In this document: one piece after another, positions 1,830-52,921 of the stretch
Position numbering within the stretch: position 1 is the stretch's first letter
How the letters are laid out: each line of letters begins with the position of its first letter
NCBI RefSeq assembly: GCF_963921235.1
Contig: NC_086097.1
Location: forward strand, 118,174,001-118,238,000
DNA: 64,000 bases
Origin: Mobula hypostoma
Lineage: Eukaryota
Direction of reading: 5' to 3'
The notes under the pieces: generated by a model
Told to the model about the DNA's origin: nothing
Databases searched by the model: none
The model's input: the letters and a program-made list of their open reading frames with translations, nothing else
Made by a program: the position numbers and the translations under genes

Positions 1830-2810
1830 AAAGTTATACCATGGGGTGATGCATCAGGAAAGGCAGAGCTTGATCACAACCCTCTGGCAGGACTGGTTGT
1901 CCTGGGATGGGCGGGGATGTTGAGAAATTCTGCCGCCGTTGTATCATTTGTGCCCAGCATAACCCTGGTAAGGGCAGAAAGCTACAGTTGGCAAATCAGC
2001 CTCGGCCGAGGGGACCCTGGGAAAACATCCAGATAGACTTCACAGGGCCCCTGCCAAAAAGCAGGGGCAAAAGCTACTGTCCAGTAATTGTGATCACTTC
2101 ACCCGGTGGGTAGAGGCTTTCCCAACAAGGGACTGCACCGCCCGCACCGCTGCATGGATCCTAGTTCAGGAAATCCTCCCAAGGTGGGGAACCCCAGTCC
2201 AGGTGGATTCAGATCAGGGAGCACATTTCCCGATGAAGGAAATGTGCCAACTGCTAGGGATTCAACAACGGTTCCACGTACCTTACCACCCCCAGGGTTC
2301 AGGGATGGTAGAAAGGATGAACTGAACAATCAAGAAGGCGTTAGCCAAAGCTATAGCTGAGACAGGAAAGACATGGGTTGATGTATTACCAGGAATCCTG
2401 ATGAGATTGCGTACAACCCCGAACCGCACATTGGGTCTCAGCCCCTACGAATTATTGATGGGGCGAGAAATGCGACTCCCTTATGGGGTAATTATGGATG
2501 CGGGGAGCCTGGGGCTTACAGGGATAGAATAAACCAATATGTGAAAGACCTTTGTAACCAATTTAAAGTGTTGAAGGACTGAGCGAAACAACAGCAGTGA
2601 ATCGCTGATCAGAGAGAGCTAGAGGGAAAGGGGATAGTCCTTCCACAGCCCGGCGAGCAAGTTGTGGTGAGGGTGCTGCCGCAAAGGCCGGGGTTTGCCC
2701 CCGGGTGGATAGGACTACAGACGGTACTCTTAACCAATGATACGTGTGTCTGCGTACAGACTCGGAGAGGCAGCCAGTGGAAACACTGGAACCAGATTAA
2801 AACATACGAC
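1830..2810 (+). pseudogene. pol: ERV integrase remnant (Zn finger, DDE core, C-terminal part), frameshifted
   Basis: CxxC, QIDF, SDQG, VERMN and SPYELLMGR motifs spread over different frames. Confidence 0.85.
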
Positions 2811-4084
2811 TCACCCTCTCGTTGCTCCCACAGACAGAGCGGGGAACCAAGTGTACCCAGTAACCATGTAATTACAGAGAACCTAAGAGAGGAACACCAG
2901 CCGGCCATGCCAGACTTGATCACAGCTGATGAAAACACCTGGAGGAAACGCAAAGGCAGAAAACGCCAAGAGCGTGGCAGAAGACACGGACAGTGTGTTG
3001 GAAAACCATGAATAGCCTGCTGAAGTGTGGTGATAATGGCACTCTGTAAAGAAGGCTGGTTGCTGAAGATTAATTTTATAGTATAGTATAGAAACTTATT
3101 GGGAAATAGACGGGGAAAGATTTCTGAATTAAAGCAGAGACAGCAAGTTCCACCACTTCGATGGCATTTCAGACTGCACACGGCATCTGGAAGCAGTCAC
3201 CCCAAGTCTGAGGAGCTGGGCCCTTTTCAGCAGTTGGGCCAGTGTTCGACCGGACAGTTCGGAAGAGGGTGCCACTGGGGAGAGGTCCTTGCAGACGTTT
3301 ATGTAGAGGCCACCCCAACCCCTTCCTGTACATCAATGAGAAGCCCTGTGGGTGCTCCTGAAAGGAGAGTTTAAGTGACCAGAGGATAAAGGGCTGAAGA
3401 CAAAGGAATGTGGTTAAGCTGCAGTCAGCCTGCAGGGAAAGAGCCGACAGGCACACGAAAGGAACCGCATTTCTAAAGACTTGGAACAGCCTCTCTGCTT
3501 AACATTTGGTAGGTAGTGATTAGAGAATGCTAGCATAGATATCGGGTACTTAAAATTGGGAGGGAATTTTGAGCAGGGCATTTTTGCTGCCCTATTTGAG
3601 CAGATCCTCCTAGGTTGGCCTTTCCTGGTACAAATTTAATTTTTTGTCCAGGAGGGCCATGGGGACGGACTGTTAGAGTGAGTTTTTGGGTAGATGATTC
3701 ATTTACACTTAAATGACTCTGGCCACCAGTCTTCTGTTTGACAAAGTACTGTGGCTGAGTTCACAACAATGCATTTCCTAAAAGCTGTGAATATCGGGAT
3801 ACTAGCCAGGCGCTGCGGATGGAAGTGTGAAGTTTACAGGTAGTTTCAAAGACAGTATTATCTATACTTTATAATATTAATTGTCCTCTATGTTAGCACA
3901 TAAAATACCAAATAAATGTGTTGTGGATTTGACTTGCACTCCTAAAAACTGTGAGTACCAACTCAGACATGTTGGCGTCAGGAGGAAAGGATGAAGTCAG
4001 AAGCTGTTTTGTTTTGTACGTAGCTTCAGAAGGAAGCATTGTCTATAACTTCGTAAGTAGCTATTGCCTTTTGTGTTAAGCATA

Positions 4085-4784
4085 TGTAGCCCCCCCCCCC
4101 CAACCACCCTCAGGGTCGCTCGGCTCGCTGTTGTCTAGGGAAACAGCCTCGGCCCCGGCAAACTGTGTAATTCGTTTGCGTGGATGCTGTGGGAGGTACC
4201 CCACCCCGCCCAAATAACAGACAATACACCAGATGCAATTAAATGATATACAGTTTATAGATATTAGTGGAACGATATAATTAAAAGAGAATAAAATATA
4301 AAAGGAAAATAAAAGGCGCCACACTCATCAAAGTTCAATCTCTTCGTGCACAAAAACCGTTGGAGCTCAAGGACCTTCTTCTTCACCCTGCGACCCCCTC
4401 GGACCACCTCGACCGGCCGCCTGGCACCAACAACGGTGGTCGACCAGACGCTCCACACGAGTCCGTCTCTGTCTCCTCGCCGAACGTCCCGCTCGGGGTC
4501 CGACCCCGTTAACAGACTCACAGCACCTTGTCCATCCTCTGTCTCGCTCTCCCGCCTTCTTCCCCAAAACCCCGCGCATACAGTATCTTCAAACACACCA
4601 AAGCCATGACAACTATCCCAATTGGTTAATAGCACTCTCTTATCACACTCCAAAGAGAAAACAAGCTGCTAGTGCAAACTTTCTCAGCATTTAACACAAC
4701 AAAGCCGCATTCCCCAGATTAACATAACAAAGACGCCATTTTAATTAGCCTCCGCAGTAACATAAAAGTCGAAACCCCCTTACA
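4085..4784 (-). repeat. 3' LTR of the nested Gypsy element
   Basis: Direct repeat of 7482-8180 (about 35-40 differences counted by eye). Preceded on the minus strand by the PPT GGTGGGGGGAGAG (4785-4797). Confidence 0.95.
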
Positions 4785-5278
4785 CTCTCCCCCCACCAAA
4801 TAAAGTCATGTCCTCATGACTTCTAAATAACTCGCCAACCAGTCCTGCAGACAAACAACGCACACATACACAGGTACACACAGTGACAGTGCTCCCCAAA
4901 CAGTGGACCTTACTCCCGTCCCATGGGCACTACATACGCCAACCTATCTGGGAGCTTCTTAACCCTCCGAGACCTCCGTACCCCCTCACCTAAACCCAAA
5001 AGGCTCAGACACTACTAGGGATACCTGGGGTCTGCTTGCCAACTCTTCTCTCACTCAGGCCACCATTACAGCTCAGAGCCCCCTGTCCCGTGTCCGAGGC
5101 CCCGCCTCTCCTCTGTCCTGATCCTGCCGTAACTCAGACTGCCCACAGCTAGCCCTCCCCACTACAACTGACTCAGTGGGAGAAGGGCCAAAGGTCTCTT
5201 CCTCAATCACGGGAAAGTTAGCGAAAGGTAGCATGTTCCACATGTGCAGCACATCATCCTTCGAATCCGTATCCTTCC

Positions 5279-6238
5279 TCATTCCCTCGATCGATAGCTG
5301 CTGGTTAAGTTTCTCCAAATTGAAACATTTAGCCGGGCTACCCCTTCAGCCTCCTGCAGTCGAGACGTCAGCTTCTTCGGGGACCCCTTCAACTCTCGCC
5401 ACAGTCTCAGCAGTTCTGACTCAGGGTTCCTGGCCATCTCAGTCTGGGACGCAGTTACCCCACCAGCTTCTTCCACCCTGACCTGAAAAGCAGCAGTTAA
5501 AGAACGTTCAGCCTCCGGTTGTTTCTTCCTGAGGGTGTCTTCCAGGTCAACTTTCAGTTTTTCAAATTCATTTAAACTCGCAATAGTCACCTTCAAGTTC
5601 CTTTCAAGTGTCCGCCTCCCTTTTCCGAGATCCGCCCTCCATTTCTTTACCTCCTCGAGAGTGTAGTCAAACTCCCCTCCCTGGGCCCTCGGTTTTCTGT
5701 TGACTTTAGTCAGAACACTTCCTTGATCTTCCCCAACTTGCAAGTCTTCCAATCTGTTCTGAATCGACGTCTTGAGTTTCTGCTGATCCCTTCGAAGGTG
5801 GGTCATTGTTTCTGCTTGCTGGATTAATTCATCAGTACATGACCGCAGTGCGGTGCAAATCCCCTCTCTTCCCTGTGTCTCATTCAGGTTGACGTCCTGG
5901 GTTTCCATCCCCCGGTCCACCACCGTCTGTTCCAACACCAGGAAGTTCAACTGGTATGTTGGGTCATTTTTCTCACATTGCACCAAACTCCTCCGGCCAA
6001 AAACTCCTCCACATTTGACACTTCGCTTCGGTCGCCCGGGCTCAGCCACTCGCCTCGCCTCATAGTCCCCCCAGGCAAATCCAAGCTCTAGGCGGTCATC
6101 CACATACGTCAAAACTCCACACACCTTCACTTCCCCCATGGTCTTCCTCATGCCCCGTGGGAAGGATGCAGGGGCTCCGGATATGCCCTTGGGCATCTTT
6201 TCGGATCGGAAGAATCCTAGGGAACTAGTAAAGGCCAT
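5279..6238 (-). CDS. Chimeric 319-aa ORF: RT remnant (aa 1-60), RNase H remnant (aa 78-107), myosin heavy-chain coiled coil (aa 109-300)
   Basis: [18 protein letters not shown] (RT); [29 protein letters not shown] (Gypsy RNase H-like); [78 protein letters not shown] (myosin rod). Expression unknown. Confidence 0.75.
5286..5914 (-). pseudogene. Transduced, intronless, internally deleted myosin heavy-chain rod fragment (MYH16-like)
   Basis: Colinear by eye with sarcomeric myosin LDDLQAEEDKVNTLTK..LEQEKKLRMDL, RLEEAGGATSAQIE and KKLAQRLQEAEE..AKCSSLEK. After a 1-nt frameshift near 5335 it continues as [16 protein letters not shown]. Confidence 0.85.
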
Positions 6239-6530
6239 CTTCAGCTCAACAGCAGCACTCCTCAGGATCTGTCAACATCCACCCCTCAGATGCAGCACAT
6301 TAAACCACATCACATAATCCACACACACGCTACCTGCATCATCCACGCCGCCAGGATCCAGTTGCCGCGACCTCTCTCTCACTGAGGTGTCTTCAGCGGT
6401 CAACTCCCCTCCCTTGTGGTAGTTCGGAGCATCTACTAAGAGGGTCTCACCCTCAGCTACTTTCCCCAGACCGTACCACCGCTGGGTCTTGTTTAAATTC
6501 GGTACTGGTTCAAGGCTGCTACACACGTCC

Positions 6531-6790
6531 TCAGAAGCAACTCGACACACTGGGTGCCTCCATGACTTCCAGGGTCATTAACCAATCATCGTCTTCTGGA
6601 TAACTACTGCCACTAGTACCCAAAGTCTCCAGTGCCTTTGCGGTTTTCAAGGGTAAATGCTTCAGACACCAGTTGTAAAACGAACTGTACAACAACTTGA
6701 CCTGCACTCCGGGGTCAAGGATGGCTTTAGCATCGCTTCCCTCTATCCGTAATGACACCCTGGGGTGAGGTCCCTCTAAGCCTTCAGGAA
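6531..6790 (-). pseudogene. Aspartic protease remnant
   Basis: [35 protein letters not shown], a degenerate LDTG motif. Confidence 0.7.
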
Positions 6791-6977
6791 TAGGGTCTTT
6801 TCCTTTCGGAAGTTCATCGGTACATTGCTGGGAACGTGCTTCCCCAGACACCCCAAGCCGTTCCCCCACTGGGCTCCACTAAGTTTCCCGACACCTCTCT
6901 GATCAGCTGAACAACTGAAGGAGGGGCTGATCCCCTGAAATGATCCCCCTGGCACTACAAGCAATTTAGCTGCCCTC

Positions 6978-7340
6978 CTAGCCAGAGAAGACACACTGAA
7001 AACTTTCCCCCTCTTTCAAATAACTGACAGCTGTCACTACGGTGTAAGTGAACCTGACAGCTCTAACACCGTCACCAGCCCGCCTACTCAATCTTTCAAC
7101 CAATCCCTGTCGCTCTCCCTCAACCGAGCACTGCCACTCATCTAACAACTGAGAGATCCGCTCCACCCAGGTCTCGCACGCCTCCGCCCCTCTTGGTGTG
7201 GACACTATCCCAAGTGCCAGGCGAAGACTGCCAGAGCTAGAACATTTATTCGCAGACACTACCTCCAAATCAGACCACTCTTTCCTCTCTCTCCCAACAG
7301 CATAGGCAGCCCCGACTGCCACCTCCAACTCGTCAATGCC
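6978..7340 (-). pseudogene. PNMA/Gypsy gag-like remnant
   Basis: ETWVERISQLLDEWQCSVEGERQGLVERLSRRA resembles the PNMA-type capsid region; truncated. Confidence 0.7.
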
Positions 7341-7459
7341 AGCCTGAACTCGAACAAAGACTGCACCCACCACGCATGCAGCAATAACCAGCAAACAACC
7401 CACAGAGACACACATTACTGATTTAAACAGGGCACCCACACAGCATACCAGCAGACTCA

Positions 7460-7478
7460 ATCTCGGACAAAGCCCCCA
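7460..7478 (-). promoter_or_regulatory. Primer-binding site, tRNA-Pro-like
   Basis: Minus strand TGGGGGCTTTGTCCGAGAT versus canonical tRNA-Pro PBS TGGGGGCTCGTCCGGGAT, 3 nt after the 5' LTR. Confidence 0.8.
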
Positions 7479-7481
7479 CAA

Positions 7482-8180
7482 TGTAGCCCCCCCCCCCCGG
7501 CCACCCTCAGGGTGGCTCGGCTCGCTGTTGTCTAGGGAAACAGCCTCGACCCCGGCAAACTGTGTAATTCGTTTGTGTGGATGCTGTGGGAGGTACCCCA
7601 CCCCGCCCAAATAACAGACAATACACCAGATGCAATTAAATCATATACAGTTTATACATATTAGTGGAATGATATAATTAAAAGAGAATAAAATATAAAA
7701 GGAAAATAAAAGGCACCACACTTATCAAAGTTCAATCTCTTTGTGCATAAAAACCGTTGGAGCTCAAGGACCTTCTTCTTCACCCTGCGACCCCCTCAGA
7801 CCACCTCGACCGGCCGCCTGGGACCAACAACGGTGGTTGACCAGACACTCCACACGAGTCCGTCTCCGTCTCCTCGCTGAACGTCCCGCTCGGGGTCCGA
7901 CCCCGTTAGCGGACTCACAGCACCTCGTCCATCCTCTGTCTCACTCTCCCACCTTCTGCCCCAAAACCCTGCGCATACAGTATCTTCAAATACACCAAAA
8001 CCATAACAATTATCCCAATTGGTTAATAGCACTCTCTTATCACACTCTAAAGAAAAACAAGCTGCTAGCGCAAACTTTCTCAGCGTTTAACACAACAAAG
8101 CTGCATTCTCCAGGTTAACATAACAAAGACACCATTTTAATTAGCCTCCGCAATAACATAAAAGTCGAAACCCCCTTACA
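7482..8180 (-). repeat. 5' LTR of the nested Gypsy element
   Basis: Direct repeat of 4085-4784, followed on the minus strand by the PBS. Confidence 0.95.
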
Positions 8181-8662
8181 CATATAAGTATTGAGCCCAC
8201 ATTGGGCTAGCAAACCTTTCTACTGAAAGCGCCTCCGTCCATATGATGCCTGCTGTGCATTGTTGTGCTGAATAAAGAAGCTACTTTGTAGCTACCAGTG
8301 ACTCTGTCTCTCCGGTGATTTCATCCACGCTACAATAATGCTCACCACTCTCTGAGTGAAGAAGATCCCCCTTGTATTCCCCTTAAACATTTCACCTAAC
8401 TTCACTGTTAGTTAAAGGGGGCATTCCTACACAGAACAAGTGTAGCCCGACCACCTGACCCTGCTCTCCCTGTTCTTCTGACCTAATGACCTTTCCCAAT
8501 CCTATTATTGTTCCATTGTTTGGCTATTGGCTAATTGATTTTTTTTTTCTTTCCCCTCCATTAATATTATTGATCCAGCATCTCCAAACAACAACTGATC
8601 TGCTGAATTGATTAACAATAACCAGGCCAAAAGCCTCTTGTCCAACTTCCAATGGGACTCAC

Positions 8663-16800: not shown

Positions 16801-17069
16801 AACTGAAGGAAGAGTGAGTAAGGGATTTGAAAGTTGGAGGGGGAGGGGGAGATCCAAAATGGTAGGAGAAGACAGGAGGGGGAGGGATAGAGCCGAGAGC
16901 TGGACAGGTGATAGGCAAAAGGGGATACGAGAGGATCATGGGACAGGAGGTCCGGGAAGAAAGACAAGGGGGGGGGTGACCCAGAGGATGGGCAAGAGGT
17001 ATATTCAGAGGGACAGAGGGAGAAAAAGGAGAGTGAGAGAAAGAATGTGTGCATAAAAATGAGTAACAG

Positions 17070-17981
17070 ATGGGGTACAAGGGGGAGGTGGGGCCTCTCA
17101 CAGCTGACTCTCACAGCTATCTGGACTATTCCTCTTCTCACCCTGTCTCTTGCAAAAACGCCATCCCCTTCTCGCAATTCCTCCGTCTCCGCCGCATCTG
17201 CTCTCAGGATGAGGCTTTTCATTCTAGGACGAGGGAGATGTCTTCCTTTTTTAAAGAACGGGGCTTCCCTTCCTCCACTATCAACTCTGCTCTTAAACGC
17301 ATCTCCCCCATTTCATGTACATCTGCTCTCACTCCATCCTCCCACCACCCCACTAGAAATAGGGTTCCCCTGGTCCTCACCTACCACCCCACCAGCCTCC
17401 GGGTCCAACATATTATTCTCCATAACTTCCGCCACCTCCAACGGGATCCCACCACTAAGCACATCTTTCCCTCCCCCCGTCTCTCTGCATTCCGCAGGGA
17501 TCGCTCCCTACACAACTCCCTTGTCCATTCGTCCCCCCCATCCCTCCCCACTGATCTCCCTCCTGGCACTTATCCGTGTAAGCAGAACAAGTGCTACACA
17601 TGCCCTTACACTTCCTCCCTTACCACCATTCAGGGCCCCAAACAGTCCTTCCAGGTGAGGCATCACTTCACCTGTGAGTCGGCTGGGGTGATATACTGCG
17701 TCCGGTGCTCCCGATGTGGCCGTTTATATATTGGCGAGACCCGACGCAGACTGGGAGACCGCTTCGCTGAACATCTACGCTCTGTCCGCCAGAGAAAGCA
17801 GGATCTCCCAATGGCCACACATTTTTATTCCACATCCCATTCCCATTCTGACATGTCTATCCACGGCCTCCTCTACTGTAAAGATGAAGCCACACTCAGG
17901 TTGGAGGAACAACACGTTATATTCCGTCTGGGTAGCCTCCAACCTGATGGCATGAACATCGACTTCTCTAACTTCCGCTAA
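17070..17981 (+). CDS. Penelope-like C-terminal protein: RT thumb/linker plus GIY-YIG endonuclease
   Basis: DSHSYLDYSSSHP..KNAIPFSQFLRLRRICS; CxxxxCxxC linker; GVIYCVRCSRCGRLYIGETRRRLGDRFAEH; E..LGSLQPDGMN. Frame uninterrupted. Confidence 0.9.
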   Translation: MGYKGEVGPLTADSHSYLDYSSSHPVSCKNAIPFSQFLRLRRICSQDEAFHSRTREMSSFFKERGFPSSTINSALKRISPISCTSALTPSSHHPTRNRVPLVLTYHPTSLRVQHIILHNFRHLQRDPTTKHIFPSPRLSAFRRDRSLHNSLVHSSPPSLPTDLPPGTYPCKQNKCYTCPYTSSLTTIQGPKQSFQVRHHFTCESAGVIYCVRCSRCGRLYIGETRRRLGDRFAEHLRSVRQRKQDLPMATHFYSTSHSHSDMSIHGLLYCKDEATLRLEEQHVIFRLGSLQPDGMNIDFSNFR

Positions 17982-45270: not shown

Positions 45271-47598
45271 TGACCAGATCAGTCGGCAGATTGTATGAAT
45301 ATACATTCATTCTCCAGATGTCATCTCATTACCGACTGCAAGCACAAGCTTTTGACATGCACTCAGTACCTTCGGTAGAGCAATTGCAAAATAGGAAACA
45401 ACTGGTTTAATGGTAATGTTTAATGGAGTGAAACTGGTGGCTGGTGTTTTAAAGGCATGTAATTCCTGGACATATAGTACCTACCTATAGGTGGCCGCAT
45501 AATGGTAAGCAGATCTGAAAGATATCAAGAATCAGAGATCGACTTTATCTGCCAAATGTACAATGGACTCTGGTTAATTGAGATCCATCAGAACAAGTAC
45601 AGTTGGCCCAATTAAGCGGATGCCCCAATTAGCCGAATTTTCATGGAATTAGTTAAGAAGGTATAAAAAGACAAACTACCATTTAACTGAGTAATGCATT
45701 ATGTATTTAAATGAAATACAGAACAAATCAGAACACCACCAGTACGATAAAACTGTGTGTTCGTGTCTAATAGTTATTGACGGAGAAATTCAGGTGTATG
45801 CTGCTGTGTGTAGGGTGTCCAGGGAGGGGTAACTCCTCCGGTGAAGGGCCTTGTATGTCCATTCTTGGGCAGCTCACTCATCTTTGGTCCCCACTGGACA
45901 CTCAGTTCTCACCTGTGGCTCCAAGTAGCTGTTTGCAAGTGACAGTGGCCACACCCCAGTACACCGCTTTGACAGTGGGCTAAACCAGGTGAAGGTCACT
46001 GGTGGGCCTCAAACCCTAGTGAACTTGGGACATGGCTGTTCTGACATGTGAAAGCTCTGGCAGACAGTGAGGGAAAGGAGAGTATCAGGTAGTGGAGAGC
46101 ACCCCTGTGGCCATCCCCCTTAACAATAAGTACTCCATTTTGAGTACTGTTGAGGGGGTGACCTACCTGGGGGAAGCAACAGTGGCTGTGCCTCTGGCAC
46201 TGAGTCTGGCCCTGTGGCTCAGAAGGGTAGGGAAAGGAAGAGGATGGCAGCAGTAATAAGGGACTCTATAATTAGGGGGACAGATAGGTGATTCTATGGG
46301 TATGAAAAAGAAACAAGAATGGTAGTTCGCCTCCCAGGTGTCAGGGTTTGTGATGTTTCTGAACTAATCCAAAATATCCTGAAATGGGAGGGTGAGCAGC
46401 CAGAGGTGGTGGTACATATTGGTACCAATGACATAGGGAGTAAAAGAGAACATGTCCTGAAAGCAGAATACAGGGAGTTAGGAAGGTAGTTGAGCAGCCG
46501 GACCTGAAGGATAGTAATCTCGGGACTGCTGCCTGTGCCATGCGACAGTGAGTATAGAAGTAGAACGTGGTGGAGGATAAATGAGTGGCTGAAGGATTGG
46601 AGCAGGGAGCAGGGATTCAGATTTTTGGATCATTAGGACATCTTTTGGGGCAGGTGTCACTTGTACAAAAATGATGGGTTGCTCTTGAATCCGAGGGAGA
46701 CCAATATCTTGGCGGGAAGGTTTGCTAATGCTGATGGGGAGGGTTTAGACTAGATTTGCAGGGGGGTGGGAACAGAAGTGAAGAGGCAGAGGATGGGGCA
46801 GTTGTCGCACAAGTAGAGACAGCTTGTAGAGAGTTTGTGAGGAAGGATAGGCAGACGATAGAACAAAGATGCACTTAGCCTGATGGTTTGAGATGTGTCT
46901 CTTTTAATGCAAGGAGTATCATAAACAAAGCAAATGAACTTGGAGTGCTGCTCAATTTGTGGAAGTATGATGTTGTGGCCATTACAGGGACTTGGATGCC
47001 TCAGGGGCAGGAATGGCTGCTGAGTGTGCCAGACTTTAGATGTTTTAAAAGGACAGGGAGGGAGGCAAAAGAGGTGAGGGTGTGGCATTACTAATTATGG
47101 GTAGTATCACAGCTGTAGAAAAGGTGGAAGTCAGGCAGGGATGGTCTGCTGAGTCAATGTGGATATAAGTCAGAAACAGGAAGAGGGCAATAACTCTACT
47201 GGGAGTTTTTTTTATAGACCTCCCAATAGTGACAGAGACATCAAGGAGCAGATAAGGAGGCAGGATTGGAACAGTGCAATAATAATAGGGTTAGTATGAT
47301 GGGAGATGTTAACTTTCCTAATATTGACTGGCATCTCCTTACAGCAAGAGGTTTGGATGGGGTGGAGTTTATTAGGTGTGTGCAGAAAGGTTTCCTGATG
47401 CAATATGTAGATAAGACAACCAGCGGTGAGGCTGTACTTGATCTGGTATTGGGAAATGAACCTGATCAAGTGTCAGATCTCTCAGTGGGAGAACATTTTG
47501 GAAGGAATGATCACATCTCTATCTCCTTTACCATAACATTGGAGAGGGATAGGACTAGACAATTTAGGAAAGCATTTAATTGGGGTAAGGGGAAATAT

Positions 47599-49080
47599 TT
47601 TCAACATCTCCATTAGTCAAGCTATTGTCCCCAGATGCTTCAAAACCTCCACAATCATCCCTGTAGCAAAGAAATCAGTTGTAGCCTGTCTGAATGCTTA
47701 CCGTCCCATTGCCCTGACCCCCATAGTGATGAAATGTTTTGAACGGCTTGTCAAGCCTCATATCACAGCCAGCCTCCCCTCATCACTGGATCCTCTGCAG
47801 TTTGCTTATCGTCCAAATCACTCTACGGAGGATGCAATATCCACCACACTGCACACAGTTCTCTCTCACTTGGACAACAAAGACACTTATGCCCGAATCC
47901 TGTACATTGATTTCAGTTCAGCGTTCAATACCATCATCCCGCAGAGACTAGTGGAGAAACTGTCGCTGTTTGGCCTTAGCACTGCCATGTGTCGCTGGAT
48001 TCTGGATTTCTTAACAGAAAGACCACAGTCAGGCCGTGTTGGCAGGAACATCTCTGACTCCATCACACTGAGCAGTGGATCCCCACGAGGCTGTGTGCTT
48101 AGCCCACTGCTGTTTACACTGCTAACACATGCCTGTGCAGCCAGATTCACTGAGAACCTGATCATTAAATTTGCAGATGATACCACAGTGGTGGGGCTCA
48201 TCAGCAAAAATGATGAAACAATGTACAGGGAGGTGGTCAAACACCTAGAGAGCTGGTGCAGGGATAACAACTTGATGCTTAATGTCACCAAAACCAAGGA
48301 GATGATCGTCGATTTCAGACGGTCTCAGTCTGAGCACACACCCCTCAGCATCAGCGGCTCCACAGTGGAGAGAGTGGAAAACATCAAGTTCCTTGGGGTG
48401 CAGATCTCGGACAATCTCACCTGGTCCAGGGACACCACTGGGATTGTGAAACGGGCCCAGCAGAGATTGCACTTTCTGAGGAAGCTTAAACAAGCATCAC
48501 ACCCCACTAACATCTTAACTATATTCTACAGAAGCGTGGTTGAGAGTGTGCTGACCTTTTGCATCACAACCTGGTACTCCAGCTGCAGGGCTGTCGACAA
48601 AAAAGCCTTGCAGAGGGTGGTTAGGGGAGCAGAGAAGGTTATTAGGGTCTCCCTACCTTCTGTCCAAGACCTCTTTCAGAGTCGATGCCTCCAGAAGACA
48701 CGGTACATCATTAAAGACGCCTCACACCCTCTCCATGAACTGTTCGTTCTTCTGCCATCAGGGAAACGTTACAGGAGCATCAAAACTAAAACCACAAGGC
48801 TACGAAACAGCTTCCTCCCACAGGCAGTCAGACTGCTAAATAGCTGCTCCACCTGACTCTGCTTTGGACACTTTTAACTTGCACTGGACACTTATAACTG
48901 ATTTTAACTGACGTGTGGCTGTTGTGTTTTACTATTTATTGTTATGTTTATTATTTAGTGTTGCGTTTGTTATGTTATGATTGCACTGCTCCTCGGAAAC
49001 GTTGTCTCATTCTGCCCTGCAGAGCTGATGTACGGTTAGAATGACAATAAAGTTTTCTGAATCTTGAGTCTTTGAATCTT
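47599..49080 (+). mobile_element. 5'-truncated Rex1/Babar-type LINE
   Basis: RT ORF 47726-48856, AATAAA and a (TGAATCT)n tail; flanks AAATAT/AAACAT. Confidence 0.9.
47726..48856 (+). CDS. Rex1/Babar-type reverse transcriptase (N-terminally truncated)
   Basis: [71 protein letters not shown]. Confidence 0.9.
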
Positions 49081-49289: not shown

Positions 49290-49994
49290 GTGACAGTCAG
49301 AGGGGGGAAAGCGAAGGTGAGCAGACAGTTAGTGCAGAGCACCCCTGTAGCCATTCCCCTGAATAATAAGTTTACCGTCCTGGATACTGTTGGCGGGGAT
49401 GACCGACCAGGTGTGAGCCACGGTGGCAGGACTTCTGGCACTGAGTCTGACCCTGTGGTGCAGGAGTGTGGGACGGAGAAGAGGAGAGCTGCCGTCATTG
49501 GAGACTCTATAGTCAGGGGAGCAGACAGGCGACTTTGTGGACGTGAGAAGGACACCCGCATGGTTTGTTGCCTCCCGGGTGCCAGGGTCCGGGATGTCTC
49601 TGACCGGGTGCACGACATCCTGGTACGAGAGAGAAAGCAACCAGAAGTCGTGATACATGTTGGGACCAACGACACAGGCAGGAAGAGGGATGAGGTCCTG
49701 AAGTGTGTGTTTTGGGAATTAGGCAGAAGGCTGAAGAACAGGACCTCAAGGGTGACGTTCTCAGGATTGCTGCCAGTGCTACGTGATAGTGATGGTAAGA
49801 ATTGGAGGAGATGGCAGTTGAATGCGTGGCTGAGGAGTTGGTGCAGGAAGCAGGGTTTTAGATTTTTAGATCATTGGGATCTCTTCTGGGGAAGGTGGGA
49901 CCTGTACAGATTGGATGGGTTGCACCTGAACTCCAGGGGGAGCAATATCCTTGCAGGTAGGTTTGCTAGCATGGTTCGGGAGAGTCTAAACTAA
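49290..49994 (+). CDS. CR1 ORF1 SGNH/GDSL esterase domain
   Basis: VIGDSIVRG, CLPGA, IHVGTND, DGLHLN; an upstream in-frame TAG truncates the N-terminus. Confidence 0.9.
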   Translation: MTVRGGKAKVSRQLVQSTPVAIPLNNKFTVLDTVGGDDRPGVSHGGRTSGTESDPVVQECGTEKRRAAVIGDSIVRGADRRLCGREKDTRMVCCLPGARVRDVSDRVHDILVRERKQPEVVIHVGTNDTGRKRDEVLKCVFWELGRRLKNRTSRVTFSGLLPVLRDSDGKNWRRWQLNAWLRSWCRKQGFRFLDHWDLFWGRWDLYRLDGLHLNSRGSNILAGRFASMVRESLN

Positions 49995-50137: not shown

Positions 50138-52921
50138 GTGTACCTCAATGCAAGAAGCATCAGGAACAAAGGTGATGAACTGAGAGCTTGGATACATACA
50201 TGGAATTATGATGTAGTGGCCATTACAGAGACTTGGCTGGCACCAGGGCAGGAATGGATTCTCAATATTCCTGGATTTCAGTGCTTTAAAAGAGATAGAG
50301 AGGGCAGAAAAAGGGGAGGAGGGGTGGCATTACTGGTCAGGGATACTATTACAGCTACAGAAAGGGTGGGTAATGTAGCAGGATCCTCTTTTGAGTCAAT
50401 ATGGGTGGAAGTCAGGAACAGGAAGGGAGCAGTTACTCTATTGGGGGAATTCTATAGGCCCCCTGGTAGCAGCAGAGATACAGAGGAGCAGATTGGGAGG
50501 CAGATTTTGGAGAGGTGCAAAAATAACAGGGTTGTTATCATGGGTGACTTTAACTTCCCTAATATTGATTGGCACCTGATTAGTTCCAAGGGTTTAGATG
50601 GGGCAGAGTTTATTAAGTGTGTCCAGGATGGATTCCTGTCACAGTATGTGGACAGGCTGACCAGGGGGAATGCCATACTAGATCTAGTACTAGGTAATGA
50701 ACCGGGTCAAGTCACAGATCTCTCAGTGGGTGAGCATCTGGGGGGCAGTGACCACCACTCCCTGGCCTTTATAATTATCATGCAGAACGATAGAATCAAA
50801 GAGGACAGGAAAATTTTTAATTGGGGAAAGGCAAATTATGAGGCTATAAGGCTAGAACTTGCGGGTGTGAATTGGGATGATGTTTTTGTAGGGAAATGTA
50901 CTATGGACATGTGGTCGATGTTTAGAGATCTCTTGCGGGATGTAAGGGATAATTTTGTTCCGGTGAGGAAGATAAAGAATGGTAGGGTGAAGGAATCATG
51001 GGTGACAAGTGAGGTGGAAAATCTAGTCAGGTGGAAGAAGGCAACATACATGAGGTTTAGGAAGCAAGGATCAGATGGGTCTATTGAGGAATATAGGGAA
51101 GCAAGAAAGGAGCTTAAGAAGGGGCTGAGAAGAGCAAGAAAGGGGCATGAGAAGGCCTTGGTGAATAGGGTAAGGGAAAACCCCAAGGCATTCTTCAATT
51201 ATGTGAAGAAAAAAAGGATGACAGGAGTGACGGTAGGACCGATTAGAGATGAAGGTGGGAAGATGTGCCTGGAGACTGTGGAAGTGAGCGAGGTCCTCAA
51301 TGAATACTTCTCTTCAGTATTCACCAATGAGAGGGAACCTGATGATGGCGAGGACAATATGAGTGAGGTTGATGTTCTGGAGCATGTTGATATTAAGGGA
51401 GGGGAGGTGTTGGAGATGTTAAAATACATTAGGACAGATAAGTCCCCGGGGCCTGACGGAATATTCCCCGGGCTGCTCCACGAGTCGAGAGAAGAGATTG
51501 CTGAGCCTCTGGCTAGGATCTTTATGTCCTCGTTGTCCACGGGAATGGTACCGGAGGATTGGAGGGAGGCGAATGTCGTTCCCTTGTTCAAAAAAGGTAG
51601 TAGGGATAGTCCGGGTAATTATAGACCAGTGAGCCTTATGTCTGTGGTGGGAAAGCTGTTGGAAAAGATTCTTAGAGATAGGATCTATAGGCATTTAGAG
51701 AATCATGGTCTGATCAGGGACAGTCAGCATGGCTTTGTGAAGGGCAGATCGTGTCTAACAAGCCTGATAGAGTTCCTCGAGGAGGTGACCAGGCATATAG
51801 ATGAGGGTAGTGCAGTGGATGTGATCTATATGGATTTTAGTAAGGCATTTGACAAGGTTCCACACGGTAGGCTTATTCAGAAAGTTAGAAGGCATGGGAT
51901 CCAAGGGAGTTTGGCCAGGTGGATTCAGAATTGGTTTGCCTGCAGAAGGCAGAGGGTGGTGGTGGAGGGAGTACATTCAGATTGGAGGATTGTGACTAGT
52001 GGTGTCCCCCAAGGATCTGTTCTGGGACCTCTACTTTTCGTGATTTTTATTAACGACCTGGATGTGGGGGTAGAAGGGTGGGTTGGCAAGTTTGCAGAGG
52101 ACACAAAGGTTGGTGGTGTTGTAGATAGTGTAGAGGATTGTCAAAGATTGCAGAGAGACATTGATAGGATGCAGAAGTGGGCTGAGAAGTGGCAGATGGA
52201 GTTCAACCCGGAGAAGTGTGAGGTGGTACACTTTGGAAGGACAAACTCCAAGGCAGAGTACAAAGTAAATGGCAGGATACTTGGTAGTGTGGAGGAGCAG
52301 AGGGATCTCGGGGTACATGTCCACAGATCCCTGAAAGTTGCCTCACAGGTGGATAGGGTAGCTAAGAAAGCTTATGTGGTGTTAGCTTTCATAAGTCGAG
52401 GGATAAAGTTTAAGAGTCACGATGTAATGATGCAGCTCTATAAAACTCTGGTTAGGCCACACTTGGAGTACTGTGTCCAGTTCTGGTCACCTCACTATAG
52501 GAAGGATGTGGAAGCATTGGAAAGGGTACAGAGGAGATTTACCAGGATGCTGCCTGGTTTAGAAAGCATGCATTATAATCAGAGATTAAGGGAGCTAGGG
52601 CTTTACTCTTTGGAGAGAAGGAGGATGAGAGGAGACATGATAGAGGTGTACAAGATAATAAGAGGAATAGATTGAGTGGATAGCCAGCGCCTCTTCCCCA
52701 GGGCACCACTGCTCAATACAAGAGGACATGGCTTTAAGGTAAGGGGTGGGAAGATCAAGGGGGATATTAGAGGAAGGTTTTTTACTCAGAGAGTGGTTGG
52801 TGTGTGGAATGCACTGCCTGAGTCAGTGGTGGAGGCAGATACCCTAGTGAAGTTTAGGAGACTACTAGACAGGTATATGGAAGAATCTAAGGTGGGGGCT
52901 TATATGGGAGGCAGGGTTTGA
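50138..52921 (+). pseudogene. CR1 ORF2 (APE endonuclease plus RT) with premature stops
   Basis: YLNARSI, ITETW, MGDFN, SDH, NYRPVSL, DFSKAFDKV, GVPQGSVLGP, KFAEDTK (YADD-type motif altered). TGA at 50135-50137 and 52673-52675; frame otherwise continuous. Confidence 0.95.

Follow-up and report, generated by a model that had tools for sequence, protein, structure and literature searches.

The minus strand of positions 4085-8180 of the window (the whole stretch of 64,000 nucleotides of Mobula hypostoma DNA that was analysed) holds a 4.1-kb copy of a non-autonomous LTR retrotransposon of the Ty3/Gypsy type, whose features are collected in Table 1. The two LTRs are 94.6% identical, with 37 mismatches (32 transitions and 5 transversions) and one gap (K2P 0.0555), and the 19-mer that resembles a primer-binding site presumably fits the 3' end of a Pro-type tRNA.

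Table 1. Features of the retrotransposon copy and its flanks, in window coordinates.
Feature	Position	Strand	Basis or remark
Target-site duplication CATA, left	4081..4084	.	direct reading; same 4 bases at 8181-8184
3' LTR (element sense), 700 nt, TG..CA ends	4085..4784	-	direct repeat, aligned
Polypurine tract (PPT), sense GGTGGGGGGAGAG	4785..4797	-	adjoins 3' LTR; function inferred from position and composition
Tail	4798..5285	-	common to all subfamilies
Coding part of tail, remnant of post-integrase Gypsy pol C-terminus	5073-5285	-	then untranslated down to the PPT
Myosin-rod-derived insert, from spliced host MYH16-type mRNA	5286..5908	-	~207 codons
RNase H remnant, P0001 residues 91-120	5912..6001	-	blastp to P0047 1167-1196
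RT remnant with YVDD, P0001 residues 1-80	6032..6271	-	blastp to P0047 916-995; Pfam RVT_1
Further degenerate pol remnants (protease-like region and RT N-terminal remnants)	6272..6980	-	
Gag remnant, PNMA-like N-terminal domain only, without capsid part	6981..7640	-	Pfam PNMA
Primer-binding-site-like (PBS) 19-mer, sense TGGGGGCTTTGTCCGAGAT	7460..7478	-	3 nt after 5' LTR
5' LTR (element sense)	7482..8180	-	direct repeat, aligned
Target-site duplication CATA, right	8181..8184	.	direct reading

The coding remnants align to a full stingray Gypsy Gag-Pol (P0047, with PNMA, zf-CCHC, RVT_1, RT_RNaseH, Integrase_H2C2 and rve domains) in the order PR-RT-RNase H, and the position of the integrase is taken by the insert. 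The gag remnant matches P0047 157-217 and scores 23.9 bits for Pfam PNMA (E 3.1e-5; cut-off 25); in the relative L076 about 35 residues lie between the PNMA-like domain and the protease region, compared with about 220 in P0047. The further pol remnants are split in the window copy into frames at 6272-6574 and 6531-6878, in which a Pfam search found no domain. They are colinear with a 724-aa frame of the relative L075, residues 43-167 of which match P0047 437-563 at 46%. Since the element has no integrase of its own, its RT has 121 residues compared with 180 in P0047, the RNase H of the window copy is reduced to 30 residues and gag has lost the capsid part, we class it as non-autonomous.

The RT and RNase H remnants share one reading frame with the insert. 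This minus-strand frame (P0001) runs from 5279 to 6271 and encodes 330 amino acids from stop to stop; the initial annotation had placed it at 5279-6238, of which the lower end stands and the upper end has to be moved out to 6271. The first 80 residues are 46% identical to the RT of P0047 (E 6.6e-17; Pfam RVT_1 is weakly matched, E 0.084), and the RNase H remnant is 50% identical to its counterpart (E 3e-5). Myosin-like sequence begins at about residue 122 (nt ~5908), so that the limits proposed for the insert, 5286-5914, were correct within two codons. A frameshift near 5330-5345 closes the frame in the window copy; the frame of the family runs on through 5073-5345, with the last myosin block reaching to ~5286 and the tail thereafter.

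Both junctions can be placed on Gypsy pol. In L072, a relative that has lost less, RNase H continues to an ..ALSR motif (P0047 1194-1258, 68%) and about 15 further residues that match Gypsy pol, and then myosin begins, about 100 residues before the position of the P0047 integrase zinc finger. Local blastp finds the tail motif (..TDSK.DE.EVWYMLPF) again in the C-terminal region, past the integrase, of four Gypsy pols: P0051 (1718-1737 of 1863, E 0.004), P0055 (1339-1359 of 1384, E 0.029) and, more weakly, P0049 and P0053. A search for tail homologues in long proteins gave 39 candidates, none at E<=0.01, and an ESM Atlas search with the tail returned no usable match. Everything in pol between the RH-IN linker and the post-IN tail is missing, and the segment therefore replaces a part of the ORF and does not interrupt it. 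These alignments uphold two proposals of the initial annotation, namely that remnants of Gypsy RT and RNase H lead in frame into myosin and back to a Gypsy tail, and that the myosin segment stands in place of the integrase.

The myosin descent of the insert is established by a chain of nucleotide identity that leads from host exons through the subfamilies of the element to the window copy. At the protein level, phmmer against PDB returned 14 sequences at E<=10, 11 of which are sarcomeric myosin heavy chains (E 5.8e-8 to 2.7e-6); these matches fall on MYH7 975-1087, with weaker collinear blocks near 1150-1182 and 1385-1403. Pfam Myosin_tail_1 (PF01576) had no match in the window copy at E<=1, and the less diverged L072 matches it at E 6.4e-10 (38.0 bits; cut-off 38.1) and E 3.3e-4, which leaves the curated score unreached by the window copy and by this best relative. 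The source-type protein P0038 itself scores 19.6 bits. The window insert is 21-23% diverged in nucleotides from host-like subfamilies and, compared with older ones, has lost several internal segments through in-frame deletions. The missing Pfam match in the window copy is what a generic coiled coil would give, and a processed pseudogene inserted into a single element after its integration might be imagined as well; such readings carry next to no probability, because the blocks are ordered along MYH7, spliced host exons match subfamilies at up to 95.8% nucleotide identity and both junctions recur in 29/29 copies. The host-exon identity and the common junctions refute them.

Sequence identity marks a host gene at ~14.61 Mb of contig C68 as the source of the insert. 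Two of its exons, X and Y, lie at 5359-5504 and 8501-8591 of locus L074; the intron that separates them is 3 kb long and has GT-AG borders. Spliced X+Y (237 nt) aligns without gaps to L070 (95.8%), L069 (94.5%), L071 and L066 (93.2% each) and L073 (91.6%), and with 12 gap columns to L072 (87.9%); host exon matches over 157 nt were found for L075 (81.5%), L076 (76.4%) and the window copy (75.8%, exon X). Other host MYH paralogues match over only 41-69 nt, at 71-80%, and the source gene is distinct from the sarcomeric genes at C68:15.3-15.9 Mb (~50% amino acid identity). A tblastn search with the ORF against the first myosin loci taken, which are non-muscle-type genes, gave nothing at 1e-3. The elements read straight through the X-Y join without the 3-kb intron, and the intronless copies cover myosin positions 898-1155, a stretch that holds four exon borders of sarcomeric paralogues. 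The gapless join and the four borders spanned without introns show a spliced mRNA source, as the initial annotation had supposed, and its attribution of the insert to myosin is borne out by the match to the host exons and by phmmer.

The transfer might also be read in reverse, with the 'host gene' at C68:14.61 Mb as an exonised fragment of the element. Gene models of the source-gene type in Narcine are indeed short (225-234 aa), and no motor exon near C68:14.6 Mb came up in a myosin-head search, a strict first look that is no proof of absence. We nevertheless consider this direction highly improbable, since the two GT-AG exons have borders that are also present in a sarcomeric paralogue, no element sequence lies beside the exons in L074 (where only two exons were found), the intron is missing from the elements, and the element copies share residues with the gene of this genome and not with the Narcine protein. 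For the host gene, which we continue to take as the source, the MYH16 label comes only from the NCBI names given to genes of its type and to element copies: the Narcine counterpart is named 'putative uncharacterized protein MYH16', a name borne in Hypanus by an element copy, and 'myosin-16-like' is the annotators' name in Mobula. The source gene appears to be headless or short in rays.

The chimera is present in many copies. First-look counts gave 843 to ~1,300 places (1,154 and 1,312 in protein-level first looks), and the 40 candidates scored from among the 843 all match, 39 of them elsewhere in the genome, at 94-95% identity. Both junctions are colinear in 29/29 fetched copies, 26 of which form one unbroken alignment ending at the LTR edge. 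Because these 29 copies at different places have both junctions in common, the chimera underwent secondary retroposition, and the multicopy family foreseen by the initial annotation exists. The analysis drew on the copies that scored best and headed the ranked lists, a choice that favours intact frames. Pol remnants, insert and tail are also common to the diverged loci L066 and L070-L073; in L069 the insert is present and aligns only in part. Relatives annotated as "myosin-like" are found in Mobula, Hypanus and Hemitrygon. Literature searches covering main texts found nothing on this myosin-carrying family of rays.

Identity to the host ranges from 76 to 96% among the subfamilies and the window copy. 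This gradient needs either an active lineage that changes about ten times faster than its inserted fossils or later recombination with host mRNA. The replicating lineage appears to evolve at about that rate. Recombination belongs to a scheme in which the myosin piece was captured repeatedly, or in which exchange with host myosin mRNA kept renewing it; in addition to the breadth of the gradient, it could account for the pair L070 and L071, whose RT remnants differ by a dS of 0.60 and whose inserts differ by 0.22, a hint at mosaic elements. This scheme seems to us decidedly unlikely, because in L066, L070-L073 and the window family the last myosin block leads into the tail, L071-L073, the three loci that still have the RNase H/linker-myosin junction region, resemble one another there, and the deletions are nested, as one ancestor would give. 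Moreover, the host-like subfamilies are few and old, and L070 shares no more than 90% identity with its nearest relatives, which fits early fossils better than a recent new capture. APOBEC- or ADAR-type hypermutation was considered as a cause of the fast divergence and rejected, since transitions make up only ~60% of the changes and all four types are present.

In 21 of the 29 copies, at least 95% of the 629-nt stretch remains in one frame. In frame, pN/pS is 0.53 when lineages are compared and 0.49 inside the family; the shifted-frame controls (0.65/0.91 and 0.90/0.62) exceed these values only modestly, and the alignments were picked by protein similarity, which biases the in-frame value downward. 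Amino acid constraint on the insert thus appears weak (pN/pS ~0.5). The core of the tail is conserved at the nucleotide level (pN 0.144, pS 0.132; pN/pS 1.09). An AlphaFold model of the insert is helical but broken, with a mean pLDDT of 57, and the L075 insert has 7 prolines in 225 residues; a conserved coiled-coil function is doubtful for both reasons.

These values invite the view that, with capture and family both real, the insert is a wholly neutral passenger whose open frames reflect youth and the choice of the best copies, without translation. The in-frame values lie near one shifted-frame control (0.62-0.65), the tail core has a pN/pS above 1, prolines have piled up in a former rod with a low-confidence model, and the copies were drawn from the top of ranked lists. 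We think this rather unlikely, though it is the most probable of the alternatives. The founder is ~20% diverged from the source yet has no stop in ~190 codons, while a neutral simulation gave a 0.4-2.3% chance of 190 stop-free codons at p = 0.24, before indels are counted. The frame is preserved at both junctions and across at least six later deletions, and about 82 of 148 element matches at 32-50% amino acid identity are stop-free (counted by eye). In addition, A>T changes in the sense strand are rare compared with A>C (4 vs 18), a bias that the whole element does not show in contigs from sequencing runs.

The frame has been stop-free in the replicating lineage, and the fused gag-pol*-myosin-tail product is therefore probably translated, with selection presumably holding the frame open. 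Our favoured guess as to the cause is that the open frame protects the RNA from nonsense-mediated decay. A more specific idea is that selection keeps the myosin segment, within a translated Gag-fusion polyprotein, as a helical spacer or an oligomerising arm that could let the defective element bring its own RNA or protein into the particles of autonomous Gypsy helpers. This is speculative, and we would sooner bet against it; if true, the family would parasitise other retrotransposons by means of a captured host gene, and its success and its frame, open over a long radiation, would be accounted for. No sequencing run recorded as RNA contained the stretch; four small runs, presumed to be RNA, gave contigs that span the entire element, and such contigs cannot show transcription.

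We infer that the founder arose by LTR-mediated retroposition with template switching, a known mechanism described by Tan et al. (2016, Genome Res 26:1663, PMC5131818). In a virus-like particle, RT would have jumped from the element RNA to a co-packaged, spliced host MYH16-type mRNA about 15 residues past the end of RNase H, and would have returned to the element RNA immediately ahead of pol's acidic post-integrase tail. The integrase would thereby have been lost and myosin rod residues ~893-1185 plus 1385-1420 gained, with both ends in frame. The chimera, which retained LTRs, PBS and PPT, would have been copied in trans by autonomous Gypsy elements, and further in-frame deletions would have led to the many subfamilies, on the order of a thousand copies in all. 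The insert would be mainly a passenger, with the fused frame held stop-free in the replicating lineage. Autonomous Gypsy elements are very abundant in this genome; a gag search for the partner gave 9,328 first-look candidates, and among the 150 scored (identity 69-89%; frames of 170-440 aa in nearly every case) there was no clear partner. To the whole account, that is, Gypsy capture of a spliced MYH16-type mRNA, spread in trans and a stop-free fused frame, we assign a probability of roughly 85%.

The family combines traits of several known systems. Like LARD/TRIM-type elements, it keeps LTRs, PBS and PPT and is presumably supplied with enzymes in trans; in the available descriptions those elements are typically without coding capacity, whereas the ray family has a frame of at least 700 codons made of degenerate gag/pol and a host segment. 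A plant non-autonomous LTR retrotransposon likewise has transduced host gene fragments fused into its internal reading frame; this plant element carries pieces of three genes, has a low copy number and differs in host gene and lineage. With acute transforming retroviruses the family would share expression of the host sequence in a gag-fused frame and propagation by helpers; those viruses are short-lived infectious agents, whereas the ray family is germline, long-lived and multicopy, with no cellular phenotype evident. As far as the available part of the source describes them, these viruses (v-onc, PMC5131818) are similarly replication-defective and have traded pol/IN functions for spliced host sequence.

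The closest parallel is with the LTR-mediated retrocopies of animals, as presented in the available part of Tan et al. (PMC5131818). There, too, part of the ORFs inside an LTR element has been exchanged for an intron-free piece of host mRNA, both LTRs are retained, the mRNA is copied only in part and the chimera is capable of further retroposition as a pseudo-LTR element. Microsimilarity of mRNA and element at the junctions is a hallmark of those retrocopies, which are young or polymorphic and show signs of secondary retroposition. The ray family differs from what that part of the paper reports in having about a thousand copies, many diverged subfamilies, a distribution over several ray genera and an open frame that has long been maintained.

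Most known examples of host-gene capture by LTR retrotransposons are young or low in copy number. In the ray family the amplification after capture was unusually large and long-lived: a captured vertebrate gene fragment rode a defective element to about a thousand copies in several ray genera. As the source gene is still present, the date of the capture, the rate of the lineage and the constraints on the cargo are directly measurable. Host-like subfamilies, with up to 96% identity to the exons, might possibly feed small RNAs against the source gene. Finally, annotation pipelines call the copies myosin genes ('myosin-16-like' or 'myosin heavy chain, striated muscle-like'), and the myosin family is thereby inflated in ray genomes.

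The repeat-rich DNA of the window, part of a eukaryotic genome of 3.48 Gb, holds a 4.1-kb non-autonomous Ty3/Gypsy-type LTR retrotransposon (4085-8180). A purine run directly adjoins the inner edge of its low LTR repeat, and a 19-mer beginning TGG lies three bases inside the high one, which places the element on the minus strand. The gag remnant aligns to the same N-terminal domain in P0047, a full Gypsy Gag-Pol of a stingray, and the frame singled out in the initial annotation is myosin-like from about residue 122 onward.

Features of the myosin-carrying element and of other elements in the window
Feature	Position	Strand	Description
Neighbouring retroelement	740-1531 and 2601-3008	+	one frame with RT_RNaseH and RNase_H domains, E 2e-14; downstream frame resembles integrase C-terminus by eye
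CATA	4081-4084 and 8181-8184		target duplication pair, identical 4 bases each side
LTR	4085-4784	-	direct repeat ~700 nt, begins TG, terminates CA
330-codon frame	5279-6271	-	frame of the initial annotation
Myosin-rod insert	5286-5908	-	
RT with YVDD	residues 1-80 of 330-codon frame		P0047 916-995, 46%, E 6.6e-17
RNase H remnant	residues 91-120 of 330-codon frame		P0047 1167-1196, 50%
Protease-like and RT remnants	6272-6980	-	broken
Gag remnant	6981-7640	-	Pfam PNMA, E 3.1e-5, weak, under curated cut-off
LTR	7482-8180	-	direct repeat ~700 nt, begins TG, terminates CA
GIY-YIG match	17067-17978	+	weak, E 2.6e-4, under cut-off; may be a Penelope-like element
LINE-type elements	47537-48853, 49290-49991, 50138-52672	+	one frame with RVT_1 and ALKBH8_N-like stretch; GDSL-esterase-like frame, then 845-aa frame with endonuclease and RT domains

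A Pfam scan of the window copy gave no Myosin_tail_1 match, a result that by itself would have counted as a refutation of the myosin named in the initial annotation; it is overridden by three other lines of evidence. phmmer against PDB retrieved 14 sequences at E<=10, 11 of them sarcomeric myosin heavy chains, with the best block at MYH7 975-1087 (E 5.8e-8) and weaker, collinear blocks following near 1150-1182 and 1385-1403. HMMER, run in full over 1.84 billion representatives, yielded 35 proteins at E<=0.001. Among the 19 inspected, 14 are short chimeras of this type, and in several of them the RT remnant comes first; the remaining five are P0014 (a protein of the source-gene type), one MYH16-like fragment and three ordinary myosins, and the best full-length myosin reaches just 29% identity. 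The decisive line is the match to host exons across a splice junction. In the host gene on contig C68 (~14.61 Mb), two exons with canonical AG/GT splice borders are separated by a 3-kb intron. Spliced together (237 nt), these exons align without gaps across the junction to element loci of related subfamilies, namely L070 (95.8%), L069 (94.5%), L071 and L066 (93.2%) and L073 (91.6%); L072 shows 87.9% identity with 12 gap columns, and the first 157 nt match L075 (81.5%), L076 (76.4%) and the window copy (75.8%). Other host MYH genes match in short parts alone, at 71-80%.

The exon borders of the C68 gene are also found in a sarcomeric paralogue, which implies that the introns are ancestral and were lost by the elements. 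Two intronless copies among those most like myosin cover myosin positions 898-1155, a stretch with four exon borders in the paralogues. On these alignments the insert is a copy of a spliced mRNA, as had been proposed from the absence of introns, and its source is the C68 gene. The label MYH16 for this gene comes solely from the names given by NCBI annotators, who call Narcine proteins of the source-gene type 'putative uncharacterized protein MYH16' or 'myosin-6-like', and the Mobula element copies 'myosin-16-like' and similar.

The original layout of the junctions between pol and insert is kept in less deleted relatives. In L072, RNase H reaches its C-terminal end (..YRPGSRNIDVDVLSR; 68% identity with P0047 1194-1258) and about 15 more residues are still P0047-like before the sequence passes into the myosin rod, at about MYH7 position 893; the integrase zinc finger of P0047 lies ~100 residues beyond this point. 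The rod in the element relatives reaches ~1185, jumps to ~1385 and stops near 1420 (MYH7 positions), and both sides of the jump read (D/E)LEE(A/S). The last rod block is followed by a tail, ..EKEKNTDSK.DE.EVWYMLPF.., whose motif is found post-integrase, near the C-terminus, in four fish Gypsy Gag-Pols: P0051 (residues 1718-1737 of 1863, E 0.004), P0055 (residues 1339-1359 of 1384, E 0.029) and, with weaker matches, P0049 and P0053. Each match is weak singly, and their weight lies in the recurrence at the same relative place. The L072 junction and the tail motif together indicate that the insert stands in for the RH-IN linker and the entire integrase, in frame at either end, in agreement with the earlier reading that myosin had taken the integrase's place. 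The window subfamily shows further in-frame deletions, of most of RNase H and the first ~25 rod residues, of 34 residues following ..ICTA and of 9 residues within the ISSVNTKLE stretch; rod positions ~1100-1148 are absent from it, as from L073 and dasyatid copies.

A genome DNA search with 5286-5914 gave 843 first-look candidates. All 40 that were scored match, 39 of them at other places with 94-95% identity spanning 624 or more of the 629 bases. The suspected multicopy family is borne out by the 29 fetched copies, which are all colinear with the window over both junctions; in 26 of them a single alignment at 91-93.6% identity covers everything from the LTR outer edge (4069-4104) to where the fetched stretch ends. 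Beyond the LTR edge, similarity to the window copy ceases, as expected for independent insertions. Protein searches with source-type myosin fragments gave 1,154 and 1,312 first-look candidates, and the 150 scored in each are nearly all intronless, with 32-74% identity and many in frames of 200-730 codons. Loci of diverged subfamilies have the upstream pol remnants and the downstream tail in common, which points to one capture and a later radiation of the family. Annotated relatives are found in Mobula birostris, M. hypostoma, Hypanus sabinus and Hemitrygon akajei. Since diagnostic residues of the elements agree with the M. hypostoma host gene and not with the Narcine protein, the capture was probably later than the split from electric rays. 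The genome is extremely rich in Gypsy elements, with 188,432 first-look candidates for a 181-aa RNase H query and 9,328 for the gag remnant of the myosin-carrying family.

In LTR-mediated retroposition, as described by Tan et al. 2016 (PMC5131818), RT jumps to a co-packaged mRNA and back, and the acquired segment takes the place of internal ORFs instead of breaking them up; the product is a partial mRNA copy with both LTRs kept and secondary retroposition possible, and the authors name the maize element Bs1 and oncogene capture by retroviruses as parallels. The ray myosin family matches this mechanism; it is set apart by its ~10^3 copies, many subfamilies, occurrence in several ray genera and maintained frame. 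Literature searches turned up no account of a myosin-carrying ray element family. The observation in the initial annotation is confirmed and its interpretation supported.

Host-like subfamilies are few and old: L070 diverges by 4% from the host exons, and even its nearest relatives do not exceed 90% identity with it. Divergence from the window copy is ~5.6% for the other copies of its family. The window copy's own LTRs are 5.5% apart, with 37 differences over 700 aligned sites (32 transitions and 5 transversions; K2P 0.0555); if neutral change is assumed to run at 0.5-2e-9 per site per year, the copy would be ~14-55 million years old. Because the insert changed by ~20% while inserted or fossil copies changed by only a few percent, the replicating lineage seems to evolve roughly ten times faster. 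Many error-prone replication cycles would account for this; editing-type hypermutation does not fit the mixed substitution spectrum of the insert (~60% transitions).

At least 95% of the insert lies in one open frame in 21 of the 29 copies (frame lengths 112 to 786 codons), and under a random-substitution model from the host exons, which leaves out indels, 190 codons would stay free of stops at 24% divergence with a probability of only 0.4-2.3%. The insert has few sense-strand A>T changes, which make stops in Lys/Glu codons (4 versus 18 A>C), a depletion not seen in contigs covering the whole element. The reading frame is preserved at both capture junctions and through the later deletions. In-frame pN/pS has a median of 0.53 over 21 pairs of lineages and is 0.49 for pooled comparisons within the family, against shifted-frame controls of 0.65/0.91 and 0.90/0.62, modest differences from alignments picked by protein similarity. 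These observations, made on top-ranked copies, argue for some constraint. Against a conserved protein function stand the modest pN/pS, the selection of copies and alignments, the seven prolines per 225 residues of one-time rod in L075, the AlphaFold model of the insert (broken helices, mean pLDDT 57) and the equal pN and pS of the tail. On balance we lean towards a long fused frame that must remain open in the replicating lineage, its sequence itself largely free; a plausible guess at the reason is that the genomic RNA thereby escapes nonsense-mediated decay.

In the first ~40 codons of the tail (window 5073-5285, compared with L075 3205-3330 and the homologous parts of L066-L073), between-subfamily pN is 0.144 and pS 0.132, pS elsewhere in the element being 0.31-0.60. 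Equal conservation at synonymous and non-synonymous sites points to an RNA/DNA signal, or to recombination or exchange between subfamilies, rather than to protein constraint.

Intronless, stop-rich matches to the later myosin tail (Pfam ~514-992) were also seen at L031 (C18:48.745 Mb), L032 (C50) and L033/L034 (C184, C157), and further such stretches at L035/L046 (C21:138.69 Mb) and L042/L043 (C12:196.94 and 197.10 Mb). They are of the non-muscle myosin type, not of the element family, and probably processed pseudogenes; at L033 and L034 the myosin match continues into sequence that by eye resembles a Tc1-type transposase end. Finally, the public proteins P0011 and P0013 are gene models in which myosin or tail sequence from the element is joined to parts of unrelated host proteins, either annotation chimeras or exonised copies.
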